A DNA stretch of 62,790 nt, the filler included, from an uncultured Methanosarcinales archaeon (GTDB lineage: Archaea > Nanobdellota > Nanobdellia > Woesearchaeales > CAYXTQ01), in NCBI GenBank assembly GCA_964608065.1. It is 8 parts of 8 records of this genome, joined end to end, with 100 filler letters (N's around TTAATTAATTAA, not from the genome) between each part and the next. Parts side by side here need not be neighbours in the genome. Positions count along the whole stretch, not along the records: positions 8,244 to 16,367 come from CAZSMA010000068.1; 7 more parts are not named here. One strand, written 5' to 3'. The notes under the pieces are model-generated. The model worked only from the letters and a program-made list of their open reading frames with translations. It had not been told where the DNA came from and made no database searches. Made by a program: the position numbers and the translations under genes. Numbering within the stretch: position 1 is the stretch's first letter; the number at the start of each line of letters is the position of its first letter. This document shows, one piece after another, positions 8,363 through 16,367 of this stretch.

Positions 8363-8623
8363 TTATCTATAATAAATATAATCATGATGCTGTAAATCTT
8401 CAAAAATTATAATGTTTTTCTCCAGCTTAAATATCAAAACAAAATGACCTACATGAACTCTCTTAAACTCCTTCATATTATATCTTAAATTCTTATAATG
8501 TTCTACACTATCAGAATTTATCACTTCTTCAATTTTTCTTATAACTTTCTCGTACAATATTTTTCTTTTTTTTACTAATTTATTTAGAATCTTCTTTAAG
8601 CTTGGCTTAATTTCATAATTCAT
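8363..8623 (-). CDS. RelE/ParE/YafQ-family toxin
   Basis: 86 aa basic protein, HYKNLRY..KRVHVGHFVLIF..HHDYIY; downstream of antitoxin. Confidence 0.85.
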   Translation of the reverse strand: MNYEIKPSLKKILNKLVKKRKILYEKVIRKIEEVINSDSVEHYKNLRYNMKEFKRVHVGHFVLIFKLEKNIIIFEDLQHHDYIYYR

Positions 8624-8625
8624 TT

Positions 8626-8865
8626 TTAATTTTCAATTATTTTTCTAAGCTCTTTAATGTTATTAAACTTAATCCCTTTTTGTTTATCTATTTTTAACAG
8701 TCTTTCTTTATATTCAGGTCTTAATTCAGGTTCAAGAAGTTCTTCTTCAAATTTATTTATCACTAGATTAATAGCATCAGATTTATTTTTTAACCCATAT
8801 TTCCCTTTTACAATAGTCAATACTCTATCTTGATTATCTCCTAAACTTACAATTGCTTGTACCAT
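8626..8865 (-). CDS. DUF2683-like antitoxin
   Basis: MVQAIV..RVLTIVKGKYGLKNKSDAIN..EPELRPEY; paired with toxin; GAGGTGA RBS. Confidence 0.8.
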   Translation of the reverse strand: MVQAIVSLGDNQDRVLTIVKGKYGLKNKSDAINLVINKFEEELLEPELRPEYKERLLKIDKQKGIKFNNIKELRKIIEN

Positions 8866-8979
8866 CTTGATTCACCTCATTATAATTTATAATAAAATAT
8901 AATAAATTATTATATAAACCTTTCGGTTTAGACATTCTTTTAATTAACTAAAATTCTCAAAAATACCAATAAATATATA

Positions 8980-9104
8980 TTAGTACTAAATAAATACTTA
9001 ATTAGTACTACTCATTATAGAAAGAAAGAAAAAAATGCTATAAAAAAGAAAATATTTATATATTAGTACTGATTACTTACTATTAAAATAATAAATTAGT
9101 ACTA
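8980..9104. promoter_or_regulatory. Four TTAGTACT(A) palindromic operator-like boxes near TATA elements
   Basis: Copies at 8980, 9002, 9063, 9096, upstream of the AbrB-type gene. Confidence 0.6.
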
Positions 9105-9116
9105 TTTTACGCAAAA

Positions 9117-9281
9117 ATGAAAGTTGTTCTAAACAAGAACCAGTACAAGATAACTATTCCTAAAGAGCTTGCCGAAGAGAATGGATGGGGTCCTGGCACT
9201 AAGATAAGATTTGTTGAAGATCTAGATGGAAGAATTTTTTTGAAAGTTACAGATAAAAAACCCCTTAAAAGAAAAAAATGA
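9117..9281 (+). CDS. AbrB/MazE/SpoVT-family DNA-binding protein (54 aa, absent from ORF track)
   Basis: MKVVLNKNQYKITIPKELAEENGWGPGTKIRFVEDLDGRIFLK; ATGA overlap with next gene. Confidence 0.85.
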   Translation: MKVVLNKNQYKITIPKELAEENGWGPGTKIRFVEDLDGRIFLKVTDKKPLKRKK

Positions 9282-10687
9282 ATGATAAAAACATAATGAA
9301 AAAAAGGGAAAACGAAAAGGATGAAAAAATGAATGAAAAAGAATTCAAAGTTATTTTGCAAGAAGGGGAAGGGCTTAAAATAGAATTCAAAGAATCTTTT
9401 GATAAGTCCATTGCTAAAGATATCGTAGCTTTTGCTAATTCTACAGGAGGAAGAATTTTCTTAGGGATTACTGACAAAAGAATTGTTAAAGGGATTGAAA
9501 TAACAAATAAGCTGAAATCACAGATTCAGGATTTGGCTAATAATTGTGATCCTTCGATTAAAGTTGAATTAAAGCAACTGGAGGATATTTTAATTATTGA
9601 AATTAAAGAAGGGAAAGATAAACCTTACAAATGCAGGGATGGTTTTTACCTAAGAGAAGGAGCCAACTCTAAAAAATTATCACGTAATGAACTATTAAAG
9701 CTAGTTGTTGGCTTAGGAAAAGTTAAATTCGATGAACAAATAAACAATGACTTTAATTTTCCTAATGACTTTGATAAAGAGAGATTTTCAGAATTCCTGA
9801 AAAAAATGGGTATTTCTAAAGTTATTTCTACAAAAGAGATTCTAACCAATCTTTCTCTTGGAGCCTCTATAGATAAAAGATTTAGATTAAACAATGCTGG
9901 TATTTTGTTATTTGCGAAAAACCCTGAAAGATTTATTAGGCAAAATTTTATTAGTTGTGTTTTGTATAAGGGCAAAGAAAGATTGAAGATTATTGACAGG
10001 AAAGATTTCAAGAATGATTTATTAACAAATTATGAAGATGGAATCAGCTTTCTTAAACAGCATCTAAGAGTAGAGTATATTATAAAAGGGACAGGGCCAA
10101 GAGAAGAAAAATTTGAATTGCCTGAAGAAGCATTAAGAGAATCTTTGCTCAATGCAATCATTCACAGAGACTATTTTGAAAAAGGATTTGGAATCTTTGT
10201 AGAAATTTTTGATGATAGGTTAGAAATAACTAATAAAGGAAAACTGCTTTTTGACAAAAAGAAATTAGGAAAGATAAGTTTTCCAAGAAATCCAATCCTT
10301 TTTGACGTTTTCTACAGAATTGGCTTAATTGAAAAAGTAGGTAGTGGAATAAATAGGATCAAGAGTTTAATTAAAAAAAGAGGACTGGAAGTCAGATTTA
10401 AGATAGATGATTTTTTCAGAGTTGTTTTCTATAGGTCTGGGGTAAGCAAAGCAAAAGACACTGTAAAAGACACTGTAAAAGACACTGTAAAATTGTTATC
10501 TAAAAATGAAAGGCTTATTTTAGAAGAGATGAGGAAAAATCCTAAGATTACGTCAGAAGAATTATCGCATTTACTAAACATAAACATCAGGAATACAAAG
10601 AAGAATATTGAAAAATTGAAACAAAAAGATTTGCTAAGAAGAATTGGAAGTGCAAAAGGAGGACATTGGGAAGTCACTGAAAAATGA
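9278..10687 (+). CDS. Schlafen/AlbA_2 + HATPase_c_4 + wHTH protein (copy 1)
   Basis: EFKES..AFANSTGG..EALRESLLNAIIHRDY..EKVGSG..IGSAKGGHW; 12-bp tandem repeat (DTVK)x3. Confidence 0.9.
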   Translation: MNDKNIMKKRENEKDEKMNEKEFKVILQEGEGLKIEFKESFDKSIAKDIVAFANSTGGRIFLGITDKRIVKGIEITNKLKSQIQDLANNCDPSIKVELKQLEDILIIEIKEGKDKPYKCRDGFYLREGANSKKLSRNELLKLVVGLGKVKFDEQINNDFNFPNDFDKERFSEFLKKMGISKVISTKEILTNLSLGASIDKRFRLNNAGILLFAKNPERFIRQNFISCVLYKGKERLKIIDRKDFKNDLLTNYEDGISFLKQHLRVEYIIKGTGPREEKFELPEEALRESLLNAIIHRDYFEKGFGIFVEIFDDRLEITNKGKLLFDKKKLGKISFPRNPILFDVFYRIGLIEKVGSGINRIKSLIKKRGLEVRFKIDDFFRVVFYRSGVSKAKDTVKDTVKDTVKLLSKNERLILEEMRKNPKITSEELSHLLNINIRNTKKNIEKLKQKDLLRRIGSAKGGHWEVTEK

Positions 10688-12039
10688 ATGATAAAAACAT
10701 AATGAAAAAAAGGGAAAACGAAAAAACAGAATTCAAAGAGTCACTACATCTAAAAGACGAGATAGGAATAGCTGTATCAGCGTTTGCAAACAAAAAAGGC
10801 GGCAGATTAATTATAGGTGTAAGTGATGATGGTAAAGTTAAAGGGATACAATCCGGAAAAAATACAATAGAAGAATTAGCCAATTATATTAAAATAAATA
10901 CAGACCCAAAAATATATCCTACTATACAATCTGAAGATAGATTAATAATAATAGAAGTTAAAGAATCCAGTGAAAAACCGGTTTTCTTCAAGGGAACTGC
11001 CTATATTAGGATAGGCAAAAGCAGCCATAAGCTAAGTTCATCTGAAATAAGGAGATTAGTAAAAGAAAGCAAAAAGAGTTATTGGGACGAACAACCTTGT
11101 GAAGAATCCAGCTTAGAAGATATCGATAATAGTAAAGTAAGATGGTACTTAGAGCAAAGGGAAAAGCACAGAAATGTATCTAAAAAAATTAAAATTTCAT
11201 TGAATAAATTTTTGGAGAATATTAAAGCTGTTAAAGATAGAACATTAACAAATGCCGGTATTTTATTCTTTGGAAAAAATCCTTTGATAAAGATATCTTG
11301 TGCTCAGCTTAGACTTGTAAAAATAAAAGGAAGGGAAATAAGCGGAACAATTCTTGATAGATTAGACTGCAACGGAACTTTATGGGAAATGGTTGAGCAA
11401 GCTGAGAATTTTCTAAAGGAGCATATTAATTTCATGGGTTTTAGAACTGCAAAAAGTTTCCAGAGAGAGGATAAGTTCGATATTCCAATTGAAGCTTTAA
11501 GAGAGCTGATAATCAATGCTTTGATACATAGAGACTATGAAACAACTGCAGATGTTAGAGTATTTGTTTTTGACGACAGAGTTGAGATAATCAATCCAGG
11601 CAGTTTCCCAAAAGGAGTGACTCCAAAGATGCCTTTGCACAAACCTGTGAATAAAGTGCTTTCACAGTACATGTATGACATAGGTTTTATTGAAAAATAT
11701 GGCTCAGGAATAGTTAATGTAAGATCCCTGTTAAAGGAAAATGGGAACAGAGATTTAGAATACGTTCTTCATGAGATTGAGACAAAAGCAATTGTTTATT
11801 CCCAGATTGACTATACTGAAAAGGTCACTGAAAAGGTCACTGAAAAGGTCACTGAAAACCAAAGAAAGATCCTCAACAGCATACTCAAAGATAAAACAAC
11901 AACTATCAAGGAAATGTCTAGGATAGTAGGTATTTCAGAGAGGAAAATCAAGGAGAATATTTCCAAATTAAAGAAAAAAAAGGTGCTTAAGAGGATTGGC
12001 TCTGCAAAAGGAGGACATTGGGTTGTTTTAAAACAATGA
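10684..12039 (+). CDS. Schlafen/AlbA_2 + HATPase_c_4 + wHTH protein (copy 2)
   Basis: EFKES..AFANKKGG..EALRELIINALIHRDY..EKYGSG..IGSAKGGHW; (TEKV)x3 repeat. Confidence 0.9.
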   Translation: MNDKNIMKKRENEKTEFKESLHLKDEIGIAVSAFANKKGGRLIIGVSDDGKVKGIQSGKNTIEELANYIKINTDPKIYPTIQSEDRLIIIEVKESSEKPVFFKGTAYIRIGKSSHKLSSSEIRRLVKESKKSYWDEQPCEESSLEDIDNSKVRWYLEQREKHRNVSKKIKISLNKFLENIKAVKDRTLTNAGILFFGKNPLIKISCAQLRLVKIKGREISGTILDRLDCNGTLWEMVEQAENFLKEHINFMGFRTAKSFQREDKFDIPIEALRELIINALIHRDYETTADVRVFVFDDRVEIINPGSFPKGVTPKMPLHKPVNKVLSQYMYDIGFIEKYGSGIVNVRSLLKENGNRDLEYVLHEIETKAIVYSQIDYTEKVTEKVTEKVTENQRKILNSILKDKTTTIKEMSRIVGISERKIKENISKLKKKKVLKRIGSAKGGHWVVLKQ

Positions 12040-12173
12040 TTAATAAAACAATAAGGCAAGGATTTGTATTGTTTTTCCTAGTTCTTGCTTTAGTTTCCTC
12101 TGTAAAAGCAGTTTCAGTTTCACATACAGCAACTGCTATTTACAATAGAGCTAATAAGGAAAAAGGTGAATAA
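12036..12173 (+). pseudogene. Orphan signal-peptide mini-ORF (45 aa), paralog of the N-terminus of the 14042 secreted protein
   Basis: MINKTIRQGFVLFFLVLALVSSVKAVSVSHTATAIYN...; 24 bp identical to 14134-14157. Confidence 0.75.
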
Positions 12174-13226
12174 ATGAAAAAAGCAGTAAAAAAAAAGTAT
12201 AATAAAATATTCAGAAATATAGTAAATCACATTGAACAATCAAAACTAAGAGCTTTTGCTGAAATAAATAAGGCGCTTTTACATGCTTATTGGAACATAG
12301 GAAGGGAACTAAGCAAAAACGTTTCTTATGGAAAATCGGTTGTGGATAAGTTATCCAGAGATTTGAGATTAAAATACCCTCGTGCTAGAGGTTATTCTAT
12401 CAGAAACTTATGGAATATGAAGAGATTTTATGAGAGTTACCAAAAACTCCAGTCACTGTCTGGAGAATCTAAAAAACTGCAGGCACTGCCTGCAGAATTG
12501 CTTCAGGTCTCATGGACAAATCATGTACTCATACTAGATAAGACAAGCTCGGATGAAGAAAAGCAATTTTATTTAAAGATGTGCCTAAAGGAAAGATGGA
12601 GTTCAAGGGGGTTGGAACGTCAACTTGATTCCTCATTATTTGAAAGATACATGCTCGCAGACAAGCCAGAAAAAGTAACTGCATTAATACCAAAACATGA
12701 AACTAAAGATCTAAGCAAACATTTCAAAGATGAATATGTTTTGGAATTCTTAAACCTAAGAAAAGAATATTCAGAACAAGAGCTTGAAAAATCAATTTTA
12801 GATAACCTTAGAGATTTCTTTCTAGAGTTTGGAAAATCATTTACTTTTGTTGGTTCACAGTATGTCATTGATATTGGAAGAAGAGAAAACAAAATTGACT
12901 TATTATTTTACCATAGGGAACTAAGGTGTTTAGTAGCAGTTGACCTTAAAATTGGAGATTTTAAAGCTTCATATGTAGGTCAGATGCAAAAATATCTTGC
13001 AGCTCTAGATGAAAAAATAAGACTATCTGAAGAAAAGGAAAGTGTTGGTTTAATACTTTGCAAATCCAAAAATCATGAAGAGGTAAGATTTACTCTTGCT
13101 AAGACACTATCACCTGTAAAAGTTGCAACCTACAAAACAAAGTTGCCTGACAGGAAATTGATAATCAAAAGGTTAGAACAATTTAAGATTAAAGATGATG
13201 ATTTTATTAAAAAAAAAAAAGGTTGA
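12174..13226 (+). CDS. YhcG/DUF1016 family PD-(D/E)xK nuclease-domain protein
   Basis: AYWNIG..RNLWNMKRFY..SWTNH..KDEYVLEFL..IDLLFYHRELRCLVAVDLK..GQM..GLILCK. Confidence 0.93.
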   Translation: MKKAVKKKYNKIFRNIVNHIEQSKLRAFAEINKALLHAYWNIGRELSKNVSYGKSVVDKLSRDLRLKYPRARGYSIRNLWNMKRFYESYQKLQSLSGESKKLQALPAELLQVSWTNHVLILDKTSSDEEKQFYLKMCLKERWSSRGLERQLDSSLFERYMLADKPEKVTALIPKHETKDLSKHFKDEYVLEFLNLRKEYSEQELEKSILDNLRDFFLEFGKSFTFVGSQYVIDIGRRENKIDLLFYHRELRCLVAVDLKIGDFKASYVGQMQKYLAALDEKIRLSEEKESVGLILCKSKNHEEVRFTLAKTLSPVKVATYKTKLPDRKLIIKRLEQFKIKDDDFIKKKKG

Positions 13227-13235
13227 AAACTTAAT

Positions 13236-13385
13236 ATGAAATTTAAACTAAACAGAGGACTTGTATTGTTTTTCCTAGTTCTTGCTTTAGTCTCCTCTGT
13301 AAAAGCAGTATCAGTTTCACACCCAGCATCTGCTGTTTATAATATACCTAAAGAAAAAATGGTGAAAAATGCATATAGAAGTTGA
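13236..13385 (+). pseudogene. Second orphan signal-peptide mini-ORF (49 aa)
   Basis: MKFKLNRGLVLFFLVLALVSSVKAVSVSHPASAVYN...; 80/88 nt identical to 12060-12147. Confidence 0.75.
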
Positions 13386-13903
13386 TCAAAGCGGAAAAAT
13401 TGAAGACTATTTAGATACTGTTGTAGCTTTTAGAAATAAAGAACAATACACAGTTTTACTAAAAAGGAAAATTAAAAACGAAATTTTAACTGAATATAGA
13501 AATAAACACAAAGATATTCACTATAGATTATTTGCAATTCTTATCNNNNNNNNNNNNNNNNNNNNNNNNNNNNNNNNNNNNNNNNNNNNNNNNNNNNNNN
13601 NNNNNNNNNNNNNNNNNNNNNNNNNNNNNNNNNNNNNNNNNNNNNTATCATTGTATTAAGAATTATCAGGATAAAGTCCAATTAATTGTAATTGATGATG
13701 AATATGAAAAAAGAGGAATTGACATTAAAAAACACCTTCTAAGATTCATTTGGAAAGATTATCCTAACTTTGACAAGAAGTTGATTAGGTTTTCCAGGAT
13801 TGGGAAAAAATCTAATGCCCACAGATTGGCATATCAGACATTTATTGGTAAATTAGCTCCAAACAAAATCATAACTGCAGATGAGGTTAAGAAATTAATA
13901 TGA
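13369..13903 (+). CDS. Putative RNase H-fold / DUF3800-like protein (spans an internal N gap)
   Basis: N-terminal IEVDQSG (cf. hYhDESG), central IVIDDEY, C-terminal KSNAHRLA; N gap 13546-13644. Confidence 0.55.
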
Positions 13904-14041: not shown

Positions 14042-16367
14042 ATGGTTAATAAAAACAAGGCTAAGATATTGCAGATTTTCACTAAACATATTCCTATAGT
14101 TCTGATAGTATTAACACTACTACCTCATGCTCTAGCAGTTTCAGTTTCACATACAGCTTCAAACATTTACAATGGAACATTTTCAGGAGGAAACTATTAT
14201 TTCCCTGTAAATTTAACAGTTGACACTAGTGATTTACATGTTGATGGTACTGGTGGTGCTGTTGGTATTGGAACTGTAGAGCCAAAGTCAGGATTTAAGT
14301 TAGATGTAAGAGGTGCAATAATTGCTTCAGGTGAAAGTAATTTAAGCTTAGGCTGCGGCAACATAACAGGAGCTACAAGTGATTTATGTACTTTAGTTGA
14401 TACTGGTGGAAGTGGTATTACAAATGGAACAGATGCTACTTTCGCTAAAGTTAACATGACTGAACTAAATGTAACTGGCTTATGTGTTGCAGAAGACTCA
14501 TTAATAACAATGGAAGATGGAACTAAAAAAATAATAACAGAAATTAAACCAGGAGAGCAAGTTTTAAGCTTAGATGAAAAAACAAATAAAATTGTTTCAA
14601 ACAAAGTTAAAGCATTACTGGATATGGACATAAAGCCTGTCTTCAACCTTACAACCAAATCAGGAAGATCAGTAAAAACAACTGGAAACCACCCATATTT
14701 AACTCCAGAAGGGTGGGTGAAAGTAACTGAGTTAAATGTTGGTGATGAAATAGCAGTTCCAGAATTAGTGGGCTTGACGAGCGAAGCGAGGAAACCCACG
14801 AAGGTGCCAGCTGACTTCTCAGCTGCTGGAAACCACCCATATTTAACTCCAGAAGGGTGGGTGAAAGTAACAGAATTAAGCATTGGAACAAAAATTGCAG
14901 TACCTAAAATAGAAAACAATCATTTAAGAAACTTTACGGTTGCGGAGTCTCTGAAATTTGCAAAGCAAATTTCTGAGAAACCAGAAATCAGCAAAGCTGA
15001 TTTCTCAGTTCAACGTAAAGGTTTAGAAACCACTTTAGTGGTGCCAGAAGCTTTGCTTCTAAGCATCTATGATTTCAAAAACATATCAACTAATTCAGGA
15101 GTAGAATACACCTTAACAGCATCCTGCTTTTTGAAATCATCCTCTCTTGACCAAATTGCACAACCTAAATGCAAAGCTAATGCAAAATACGGAATATCTT
15201 TGCTGTGTGGCGCTAATTTCTCTGCTTTGGATTGCAGTTCAGGAGAGAATTTGTATATCGGAAATATCTCAACTCTTTGTTTAAGAATTTCAAACTCCTC
15301 TCTAATTTTGGACTCTGTAGAACCGCAAATCTTAGCCATTGTTCCTGCATTCTTATTAAACTCCTTAATCAGATATGGCAATGCAACTAATCTCAACTTG
15401 TCTTCAAAAAATAAATCATTAGTCTTGCCCTTGCCAATAATAGCTGCAAATAAAACAGTAGCATCTACAACTAATTCCATTTATTTTGCCTCACGAAAGC
15501 TTTTAGCTACTGCTTCAGAAATCTTATCAGTAAACTCTTTAGCATCTTCATCTGAGATTTTAATTTTGGATGAAAGCGTTTTAAGCCTCCTTAACTTTTC
15601 AGCTTTATCAAATATTGCTCTCCTAGCTACCTCAGACCAATCCAGCTTAAACTCGTGCATACTTTTCTCTAATTCATCTGGTACAGATATTGTTATTGTT
15701 CCCATTTTAATATCACCAGAGCATAATAATGAAAATGACTATTTAAATGTTATGGAAAACAATAATATCAATTTAAAAGATAATAATCCCACCCACCCAC
15801 CCCAAACCACATCCTTAATAGCAATATCAACATTGGAGCAAAGCGATATCTCTTTGAAATCAGAGATTTCTGATGTCTTCTGGGATGAAATTACAAGTAT
15901 AGAATACATCGGAGAGGAGCACGTCTATGACTTAATGATAGAAAACACCCATAACTTTATTGCAAACGATATTATTGCTCATAATACATATATTAGTGAT
16001 AATGCAAGCTTTGACAGCGGAACATTATATGTAGATGCAGCAGATAATAGGGTCGGCATCGGGACGACTAGTCCTGATGCCATATTAGAAATAGTAGGTG
16101 TAAATAGTTTAGACCCAATTCTTTTAGATAAGGGAACTGGAGAAACTGGAATTAAGTTTACTTTTGATGGAACAAACTATGTTAGTTATATTAGGACGGT
16201 TGAGGCAGGTACAATCGCAGATAATTATATGACTTTTGGTGTTTCTCAAGGTGCTAATACAAATTCTTTAGAAGTGATGAGGTTAAAAGGCGACGGCAAC
16301 GTCGGCATCGGCACAACAGCTCCAAAATCTTTATTACAAGTTGAAGATGGTAATGTAACATTTAACA
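14042..16367 (+). CDS. Large secreted/surface protein with VGIGT (tail-fibre-like) repeats and an intein; 3' truncated
   Basis: Signal peptide ending ALA|VS; three (G/N)xVGIGT repeats; many NxT sequons; intein at aa 148-648. Confidence 0.85.
15067..15480 (-). CDS. PIN-domain (VapC-like) toxin nested antisense in the intein
   Basis: LVVDATVLFAA..E..KDIPYFALAL..IWSREDDFKKQ..VYSTPEL. Confidence 0.88.
   Translation of the reverse strand: MELVVDATVLFAAIIGKGKTNDLFFEDKLRLVALPYLIKEFNKNAGTMAKICGSTESKIREEFEILKQRVEIFPIYKFSPELQSKAEKLAPHSKDIPYFALALHLGCAIWSREDDFKKQDAVKVYSTPELVDMFLKS
15481..15705 (-). CDS. CopG/RHH-type (VapB-like) antitoxin nested antisense in the intein
   Basis: MGTITISVPDEL..DWSEVARRAI; TAA directly abuts the toxin ATG; GGTGA RBS at 15717-15713. 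Confidence 0.88.
   Translation of the reverse strand: MGTITISVPDELEKSMHEFKLDWSEVARRAIFDKAEKLRRLKTLSSKIKISDEDAKEFTDKISEAVAKSFREAK
15740..15755 (-). promoter_or_regulatory. TATA promoter of the nested TA operon
   Basis: Minus-strand AACATTTAAATA, same as promoter-like motifs at ~42197 and ~44596. Confidence 0.6.

Follow-up and report, generated by a model that had tools for sequence, protein, structure and literature searches.

A predicted toxin-antitoxin operon on the antisense strand of an endonuclease-free intein in an archaeal surface-protein gene

An intein in a surface-protein gene of an uncultured archaeon carries a predicted VapBC-like toxin-antitoxin (TA) operon on its antisense strand, at the position where a homing endonuclease normally lies. 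The same layout recurs in dozens of related inteins, and codon choice in the cargo genes indicates that selection keeps the host frame open across them. The window, by which we mean the whole 62,790-nt stretch of DNA that was analysed, strings together contigs from an assembly of 1.4 Mb with 31% GC, and the sequencing runs that match it are groundwater metagenomes, with no RNA data set listed among them. The host gene (14042-16367, plus strand), which is cut by the end of its 8.1-kb contig (C68), encodes a large secreted or surface protein with a signal-peptide-like start and GxVGIG beta-repeats; the relatives of this protein are LamG/Ig-repeat giants with open frames of up to 7,584 aa.

The intein and its antisense operon

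On the plus strand, 14483-15985 comprises 501 stop-free codons that begin with Cys, end with His-Asn and are followed by Thr. The class 1 motif set (Cys/Ser1, block-B Thr-x-x-His, block-F Asp, a His-Asn end and a +1 Cys/Ser/Thr) is complete, being represented by Cys1, Thr67/His70, Asp483, His500, Asn501 and a +1 Thr, with blocks F/G and the C-extein +1 Thr located at 15863-15988. Profile searches support this reading, Pfam Intein_splicing scoring 107 bits and both TIGR01445 and TIGR01443 exceeding their cut-offs. In the predicted structure the Hint fold is formed by residues ~1-75, 122-142 and 461-501 and superimposes on the NpuDnaB intein with a Z of 22.8 and an rmsd of 1.4 Å over 136 aligned residues, and the insert is modelled with pLDDT below 50. 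A profile search of the intein for LAGLIDADG and HNH domains gave no match at E<=0.1. An earlier note on this DNA had described a stop-free intein frame with intact F/G blocks and no endonuclease between the blocks, and open frame, residues, profiles and predicted fold bear it out on both counts. On the basis of the Hint fold, assembled from the N- and C-terminal regions, and of the splicing residues, we assign the element to class 1 and predict that it splices.

The minus strand of the insert encodes two abutting genes, the antitoxin stop at 15481 being directly followed by the toxin start at 15480. The downstream gene (15067-15480, 137 aa) matches PIN_2 with 66 bits, is predicted to adopt a VapC/PIN fold with PAE0151 (2fe1) as the best structural match (E 2e-5), and has three acidic residues (Asp6, Glu40 and Asp95) that are invariant in 55 homologs. 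The upstream gene (15481-15705, 74 aa) encodes a putative ribbon-helix-helix (RHH) antitoxin; its match to the VapB-like profile NF050799 (E=1e-6) lies below that profile's cut-off, and it clusters with RHH_12 at 0.92 in the Atlas. Seven nucleotides before the antitoxin start lies a GGTGA ribosome-binding motif (15713-15717, minus strand) that is present in most close homologs, and further upstream lies a candidate archaeal TATA box (15740-15747, minus strand). This octamer is kept upstream of the antitoxin in 14 of the 17 close homologs; it is variant in two others (L033 and L035), and the last (L040) has no antitoxin. DNA similarity between the study locus and its closest relative, L001, stops at 15747, exactly at the edge of the TATA box. 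The close toxin homologs are labelled Nanoarchaeota or Woesearchaeota, which suggests a DPANN archaeon as the source. A PIN-fold toxin with conserved acidic residues, preceded in one operon by a small DNA-binding antitoxin, is the arrangement that defines type II VapBC systems, and we predict from sequence and structural models that the pair is a VapBC-like TA operon. TATA box, ribosome-binding motif, antitoxin and toxin agree with the earlier note.

Two repeat features lie between 14682 and 15066. The block-B region is duplicated at 14682-14912 (plus strand), a feature absent from the earlier note, as two 87-nt copies of 83% identity with a period of 144 nt (48 codons) around a 57-nt palindromic stretch, the latter folding no better than its shuffles. 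The duplication resembles the intein-piece spacers that separate cassettes in array-bearing relatives. At 14925-15066, downstream of the toxin and in frame with the intein, two stacked capped hairpins fold strongly (z -8.0 and -7.2). They belong to a dispersed family of 15 such DNA hairpins in the genome, two of them inside this intein, and the family was found on contigs C2, C4, C6, C19, C20, C24, C29, C45, C64, C67, C68, C83 and C98 of the assembly (G000). The hairpins proposed in the earlier note are thus real as strongly folding structures (z about -8), and their membership in a dispersed repeat family leaves the suggested role as a TA terminator unsupported. A scan for sigma-70 promoters and terminators is uninformative in an archaeon, and no tRNA was found in the intein (locus L003).

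Recurrence of the layout and selection on the host frame

The best genome match of the toxin (L001, 79% identity) is likewise part of a TA operon antisense in an open intein, located in a different giant protein, and the layout is also found in a second intein subfamily, that of LamG-repeat proteins. Among the 16 surface-protein inteins from intein-centred searches, 15 carry antisense TA genes of the PIN, RelE/ParE or DUF433-DUF5615 types, the exception being one on G788 C57; in this count, which leaves out G788 C2 (contig end) and the weak C4 match of G788, genome G788 was reached via the toxin, and G202 C51 and G321 were also matched by the antisense-peptide genome search. None of the eight complete inteins in enzyme genes has antisense TA genes (L115, L121, L139 and L141, with the C-terminal part unscored, are left out of this count), and LAGLIDADG was present in all seven scanned host proteins. 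At the protein level, 152 proteins match the intein N-part. The best 120 of them, with no LAGLIDADG family listed for any, include 72 complete inteins. Antisense-TA profiles match 37 of these 72, namely 29 of 37 in the group closest to the study intein and 8 of 35 in the other, with two Elusimicrobia-labelled proteins included. No relative of the N-part was present among 86 pattern-matching viral-contig stretches. In two samples, each of 401 genomes, surface-type matches of the study intein's subfamily came from 2 other genomes in one sample and 1 in the next; for the second subfamily the figure was 4 of 401. These inteins are uncommon in assemblies, and giant repeat genes assemble poorly.

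Cargo in the relatives also includes ParE/RelE, DUF433, DUF5615 and DUF2283 families, and paralogous inteins of one genome hold different TAs in each of three genomes (G668, G788 and G202), some paralogous inteins of G668 carrying related RelE-type pairs. The source genome of L001 (G788, 1.6 Mb) has at least five such inteins across three giant genes. In G668 a 22.7-kb contig (C8; L125 and L126) is one open frame of 7,584 codons with LamG/Ig repeats. It holds three inteins, each with a different TA cargo and one with repeated N-terminal Hint halves. An intein of ~2,200 residues (G587) carries eight operons, namely five of PIN type, two DUF433-DUF5615 pairs and one DUF2283 pair, which use all three antisense frames; most are set apart by a TATA box and by repeats of parts of the N-region of the intein itself. 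The loci are related to one another and were recovered from fragmented metagenome assemblies, so that all locus counts exaggerate their independence, and the long arrays might be chimeric in part.

Frame openness at a single locus had been rated as moderate evidence in the earlier note, and we agree: given the protein sequence and the genome's codon use, the study TA genes would be free of antisense stops with P=0.004, and among 889 stretches of 213 codons taken from genes of the same genome, 2 have this frame open. As had been noticed, all 12 at-risk junctions (10 Tyr/His/Gln codons and 2 stops) are preceded by purine-ending codons. Stop statistics were taken from a sense-protein search, the best 80 of whose 111 loci gave 75 distinct PIN genes or 69 loci; the antisense-peptide genome search, biased toward open frames, was kept out of them. 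Across these 75 PIN genes, picked by their sense protein, antisense stops are distributed bimodally, with 34 genes lacking any such stop versus 6.7 expected by synonymous shuffling and the remaining 41 containing 156 versus 156.6 expected. Hint or giant-gene DNA lies opposite none of the 38 closed-frame loci, compared with 18 of 31 open-frame loci.

Codon choice points in the same direction. In 12 in-register cargo genes, none of the 98 Leu codons and none of the 53 Ser codons is stop-making, as against shares of 50% and 32%, respectively, in 52 other cargo genes; the total of 0 of 151 compares with about 66 expected (log10 P about -39 if codons are independent), and kinship among the loci inflates this and all other selection counts. 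None of 84 at-risk cells in 15 close homologs has a stop-making base, the only changes there being between A and G, and T and C make up 59% at the other four-fold sites. The toxin shows dN/dS values of 0.03-0.22 against its homologs, with dS above 1. Third-position transversions occur at 0.39 where silent in both frames, at 0.05 where they change the toxin and at 0.22 where they change the intein frame only. Toxin-changing transversions are thus reduced about sevenfold, and those changing only the intein frame less than twofold when the 15 homolog rows are pooled and about twofold when the 9 rows nested in inteins are taken, a reduction that may reflect weak constraint or sequence context. The off-register locus L040 and the duplicates L003, L035 and L045 were excluded from the at-risk-site and transversion analyses. 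These patterns show, as far as sequence comparison can, that selection keeps the host frame open over the cargo and that purifying selection acts on the toxins, with far less constraint on the intein-frame peptide.

An easy-to-open antisense frame combined with repeat-driven chimeric contigs might mimic such an arrangement, the shared-wobble frame being the easiest to keep open (the P value above concerns the study locus alone), the contigs small and no single contig among the public ones found covering the whole host-intein-TA stretch. Both cassette ends, whose bridging by reads had been named as a check, are nevertheless crossed by public contigs from two studies. X1 (14413-14711), which may come from the source sample, crosses from extein to intein; X3 (14743-15340, from a second study), X1 and X2 cross from intein to toxin; and X2 (15589-16228) runs from the antitoxin through the promoter and blocks F/G into the C-extein. 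Compared by eye, X3 differs by two third-position changes, neither of which creates a stop. Together with the repetition of the layout in other genomes, with other hosts and other cargo, and the codon avoidance described above, this makes chance or misassembly extremely improbable. Because the layout recurs so widely with recoded cargo, the view of the intein as a safe harbour for autonomous cargo holds, supported further by the missing homing endonucleases and by the empty sites described below; the splicing on which it depends is predicted.

Exchange of cargo and the filling of the slot

Unrelated cargo is found in inteins whose Hint arms are 96% identical, and the AU test rejects a clade made up of the four inteins that share the study TA type (p=0.00016). 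In a quick tree of 119 PINs (136 columns, mixing the sense-protein and antisense-peptide locus sets) the intein label needs 16 changes, at least 9 of them forced by strongly supported branches, and the PIN clade of the study TA is found in each of the two intein subfamilies. Empty sites lie in the same gene as filled ones, with an exact empty repeat in G668; the 501-codon intein's own site has approximate empty relatives only. Paralogous inteins in one genome share about 80% DNA identity and therefore show no sign of recent conversion, and two inteins in different host contexts (L033b and L039) share a continuous 74% DNA identity from the intein start through the TA. The uncoupling of cargo from intein lineage, the divergence of the paralogs and the exact empty sites together lead us to conclude that the cassette moves relative to the intein and that the intein has moved among repeats, not visibly recently. 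By eye, no common recombination site is evident at the cassette borders, and the spacers consist of intein or host-gene pieces with no attC-like site evident.

In order to rationalise these observations we favour, with modest confidence, a recombination-fed cargo slot in repeat-rich giant genes that is locked in by TA addiction. An endonuclease-free intein lineage with two subfamilies would reside in repeat units of giant surface-protein genes, its central loop serving as the slot; the hosts would be small-genome archaea (Nanoarchaeia-like, as the labels of homologs suggest), and related inteins occur in proteins labelled Patescibacteria. Antisense in this slot lie self-contained TA operons, each equipped with a TATA box. 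The surviving versions are those that leave the host frame stop-free, with cargo codons tuned accordingly, as the codon statistics show, and selection acts on the toxin protein far more than on the intein-frame peptide. Protein splicing would remove the junk peptide and restore the repeat unit, identical empty repeats of which exist. Cassettes would enter, swap and stack by recombination, with Hint-coding arms and host-gene pieces providing homology, a process that would leave duplicated intein pieces between cassettes. Each TA, once in, would resist its own deletion, and since each intein copy per genome carries a different TA, a ratchet may keep the slots filled. Such a ratchet would protect a deletion-prone repeat gene in the way that TA cassettes do in superintegrons; it would maintain the intein, spread being a separate matter. 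TA expression, toxicity, the recombination route and the ratchet itself are parts of this scheme that we infer.

The earlier note had suggested that the TA pair could make the intein addictive in place of homing. Spelled out, intein and TA would form a selfish unit, and conversion between filled and empty repeats would kill losers of the TA and spare gainers, permitting nuclease-free spread. No cargo intein examined contains an endonuclease, empty sites lie next to filled ones with an occupancy of 15/16, and the continuous identity of L033b and L039 across intein and TA would fit joint movement. We nevertheless consider this unlikely, as the uncoupled lineages, the study TA clade shared by two subfamilies and the unrelated cargo between near-identical Hint arms all speak against a fixed unit, as does the divergence of the paralogs. 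In addition, non-TA and sense-strand cargo occupies the same slot, the arrays, with up to eight operons in one intein, far exceed the TA pairs that a single lock would require, TA operons outside inteins also leave this antisense frame open, and the scheme would require polyploidy or frequent DNA exchange.

The cargo extends beyond TA pairs. In G390, two small membrane-type ORFs lie next to a PIN pair. tRNA or tRNA-like sequences lie in open host frames at L033:1299-1384, L100:368-437 and L002:2310-2399, one of them with a T-arm insertion, and several proteins among the intein relatives have stretches that by eye resemble read-through of an antisense tRNA gene. Seven same-lineage inteins (P0138, P0139, P0142, P0223, P0227, P0237 and P0246) have an in-frame NYN (PIN-like) domain in the endonuclease slot; at the protein level, these are mostly Patescibacteria-labelled, and other in-frame domains occur in that slot too. 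In a further reading, which we rate as less likely than not, an intein lineage would have traded its homing nuclease for an exchangeable cassette slot in which DPANN archaea and CPR-type bacteria hide operons inside giant surface genes; TA addiction would bias recombination in favour of filled repeats, which would then persist and spread endonuclease-free. TA arrays, small membrane genes, tRNA-like sequences and sense-frame NYN nucleases might then all be cargo of one platform, a proposal made with the same reserve. The alternatives weighed in this section (addiction-driven spread above, cover translation and hitchhiking below) partly overlap with each other and with the locked-in cargo slot that we favour.

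Cargo also lies outside inteins. Antisense TA operons were found in frame in giant proteins with no Hint domain found (L038 and P0110). In P0110 (residues ~1100-1780) the host is an unnamed domain that starts with Cys-Pro-Phe and has pieces repeated between cassettes; its Atlas matches, at 0.88, are unnamed as well, and autoprocessing may be its so far unrecognised function. L043:634-5193, which follows a LamG surface gene on its downstream side, holds five antisense TA operons, each under an abutting opposite-strand ORF, and one repeated spacer, containing a ribosome-binding motif, is common to four of the six junctions. Such cargo does not depend on an intein, since TA operons occur both in giant proteins with no Hint found and beneath stand-alone open frames. 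The common factor is the giant surface-gene locus, and the intein is an in-gene way of hosting cargo there.

The L043 arrangement raises the question of whether the strand opposite a TA must be translated in order to avoid premature termination of a long surface-protein transcript, inteins serving this function within genes and stand-alone ORFs between genes. Most of the L043 ORFs start from the repeated ribosome-binding spacer, FttA-dependent termination is described as Rho-analogous in the accessible text of PMC13681488, and a strict SD-ATG in the matching frame is present at 8 of 33 open non-intein loci versus 0 of 55 closed loci (a loose SD test, 17/36 versus 2/64, was not length-matched and is superseded by the strict one). 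The excess is modest, however, because the other two frames of the open loci give 3/33 and 2/33, and the same text calls direct evidence for coupling in archaea scarce. Two open frames outside inteins (L034 and L037) keep intein or extein remnants and, like others, may be relics, and the presence of TAs at all would be left unexplained. We thus regard a need for cover translation as quite unlikely.

Upstream of the host gene, 8363-13903 forms a defence-like cluster. It comprises a free RelE-type TA pair (8363-8865, minus strand) similar to the cargo RelE of inteins, a small ORF (9117-9281), two Schlafen/AlbA_2 genes, a DUF1016/YhcG gene and an unnamed gene with weak similarity to in-frame intein cargo of another protein, and truncated copies of the host-gene 5' end separate its genes. 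Two of these stray copies, of DNA from the end of the signal-peptide region (12108-12130 and 13305-13327, plus strand), flank the DUF1016/YhcG gene and a third copy lies within the host gene at 14135-14157; the genome contains 3 copies where 0 are expected by chance. The block-B duplication and these stray copies would fit a recombinational insertion that duplicates host pieces. Such neighbours, the TA array adjoining a giant gene in L043 and the non-TA cargo are also what one would expect if TA and small genes were kept for their own benefit as a defence or stress island at variable surface loci, hitchhiking in the intein as one tolerant spot with no addiction involved. Hitchhiking leaves the near-absence of empty slots unexplained, the second-smallest insert among the 72 complete inteins measuring 103 aa, and likewise the costly recoding within a frame when intergenic sites are available, and we rate it as somewhat unlikely.

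Known systems and implications

Opposite-strand genes in inteins have precedents. Antisense LAGLIDADG and VSR-like ORFs are described in actinobacteriophage inteins (Gosselin et al., bioRxiv 10.1101/2025.01.02.630785), and antisense LAGLIDADG ORFs in the Synechocystis DnaX and Chloroflexus SpoVR-like inteins (Gorbalenya 1998, as cited). As far as these sources are available, they share with the present intein an intact opposite-strand gene between the splicing blocks and an open host frame, and sit in conserved enzymes rather than repeat-rich surface proteins. Here, the opposite-strand ORFs encode PIN_2 and RHH proteins and no homing endonuclease of the LAGLIDADG, VSR, HNH or EndoVII families, and the cargo comprises whole TA operons with their own promoter and other small genes, is drawn from many families, and is exchanged and stacked in arrays. 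The word 'toxin' occurs 0 times in the main text of 10.1101/2025.01.02.630785, the supplements of which may list other antisense ORFs. We found no report of a TA or other non-homing operon as intein cargo in the literature searched, the coverage of which excludes most subscription papers. The earlier note's remark that it knew of no described system like this is overstated for the layout, antisense homing-endonuclease genes in inteins having been published; TA cargo, arrays and exchange appear to be undescribed.

Sedentary chromosomal integrons, according to the accessible text of PMC13108822, likewise have promoter-bearing TA cassettes interspersed in repeat-rich arrays, where they are proposed to prevent large deletions; the present arrays differ in lying within a protein-coding frame, in being dual-coded and hidden by presumed splicing, and in having no attC-like site evident by eye. 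Compared with archaeal VapBC systems, the pair agrees in gene order, sizes, abutting genes, PIN fold and VapB-like antitoxin, but lies antisense within another gene, whose frame its recoded codons leave open, and is known here from sequence. The ShiLan insertion, a hidden out-of-frame HNH endonuclease in a phage methylase (PMC11855218, as far as accessible), is also an in-frame stop-free insertion that hides a gene in another frame and recalls the non-Hint hosts L038 and P0110, yet it is a single element with a homing nuclease in an alternate frame, unlike TA operons in a cassette slot.

In the inteins described here, entire operons of cellular genomes are dual-coded over their full length, naturally and under selection, across kilobases and in all three antisense frames. 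As gene callers keep one strand only, TA operons or giant genes will be missed or split in these genomes. If the ~2,200-residue intein indeed splices, it would widen the known tolerance of Hint domains and provide a model from nature for coupling a payload to a host gene. Cargo slots suggest how endonuclease-free inteins persist, and they point to a testable role for TA systems in episymbiotic cells, that of protecting repeat genes of great length. The inteins resemble concealed stores of cargo more than homing elements.
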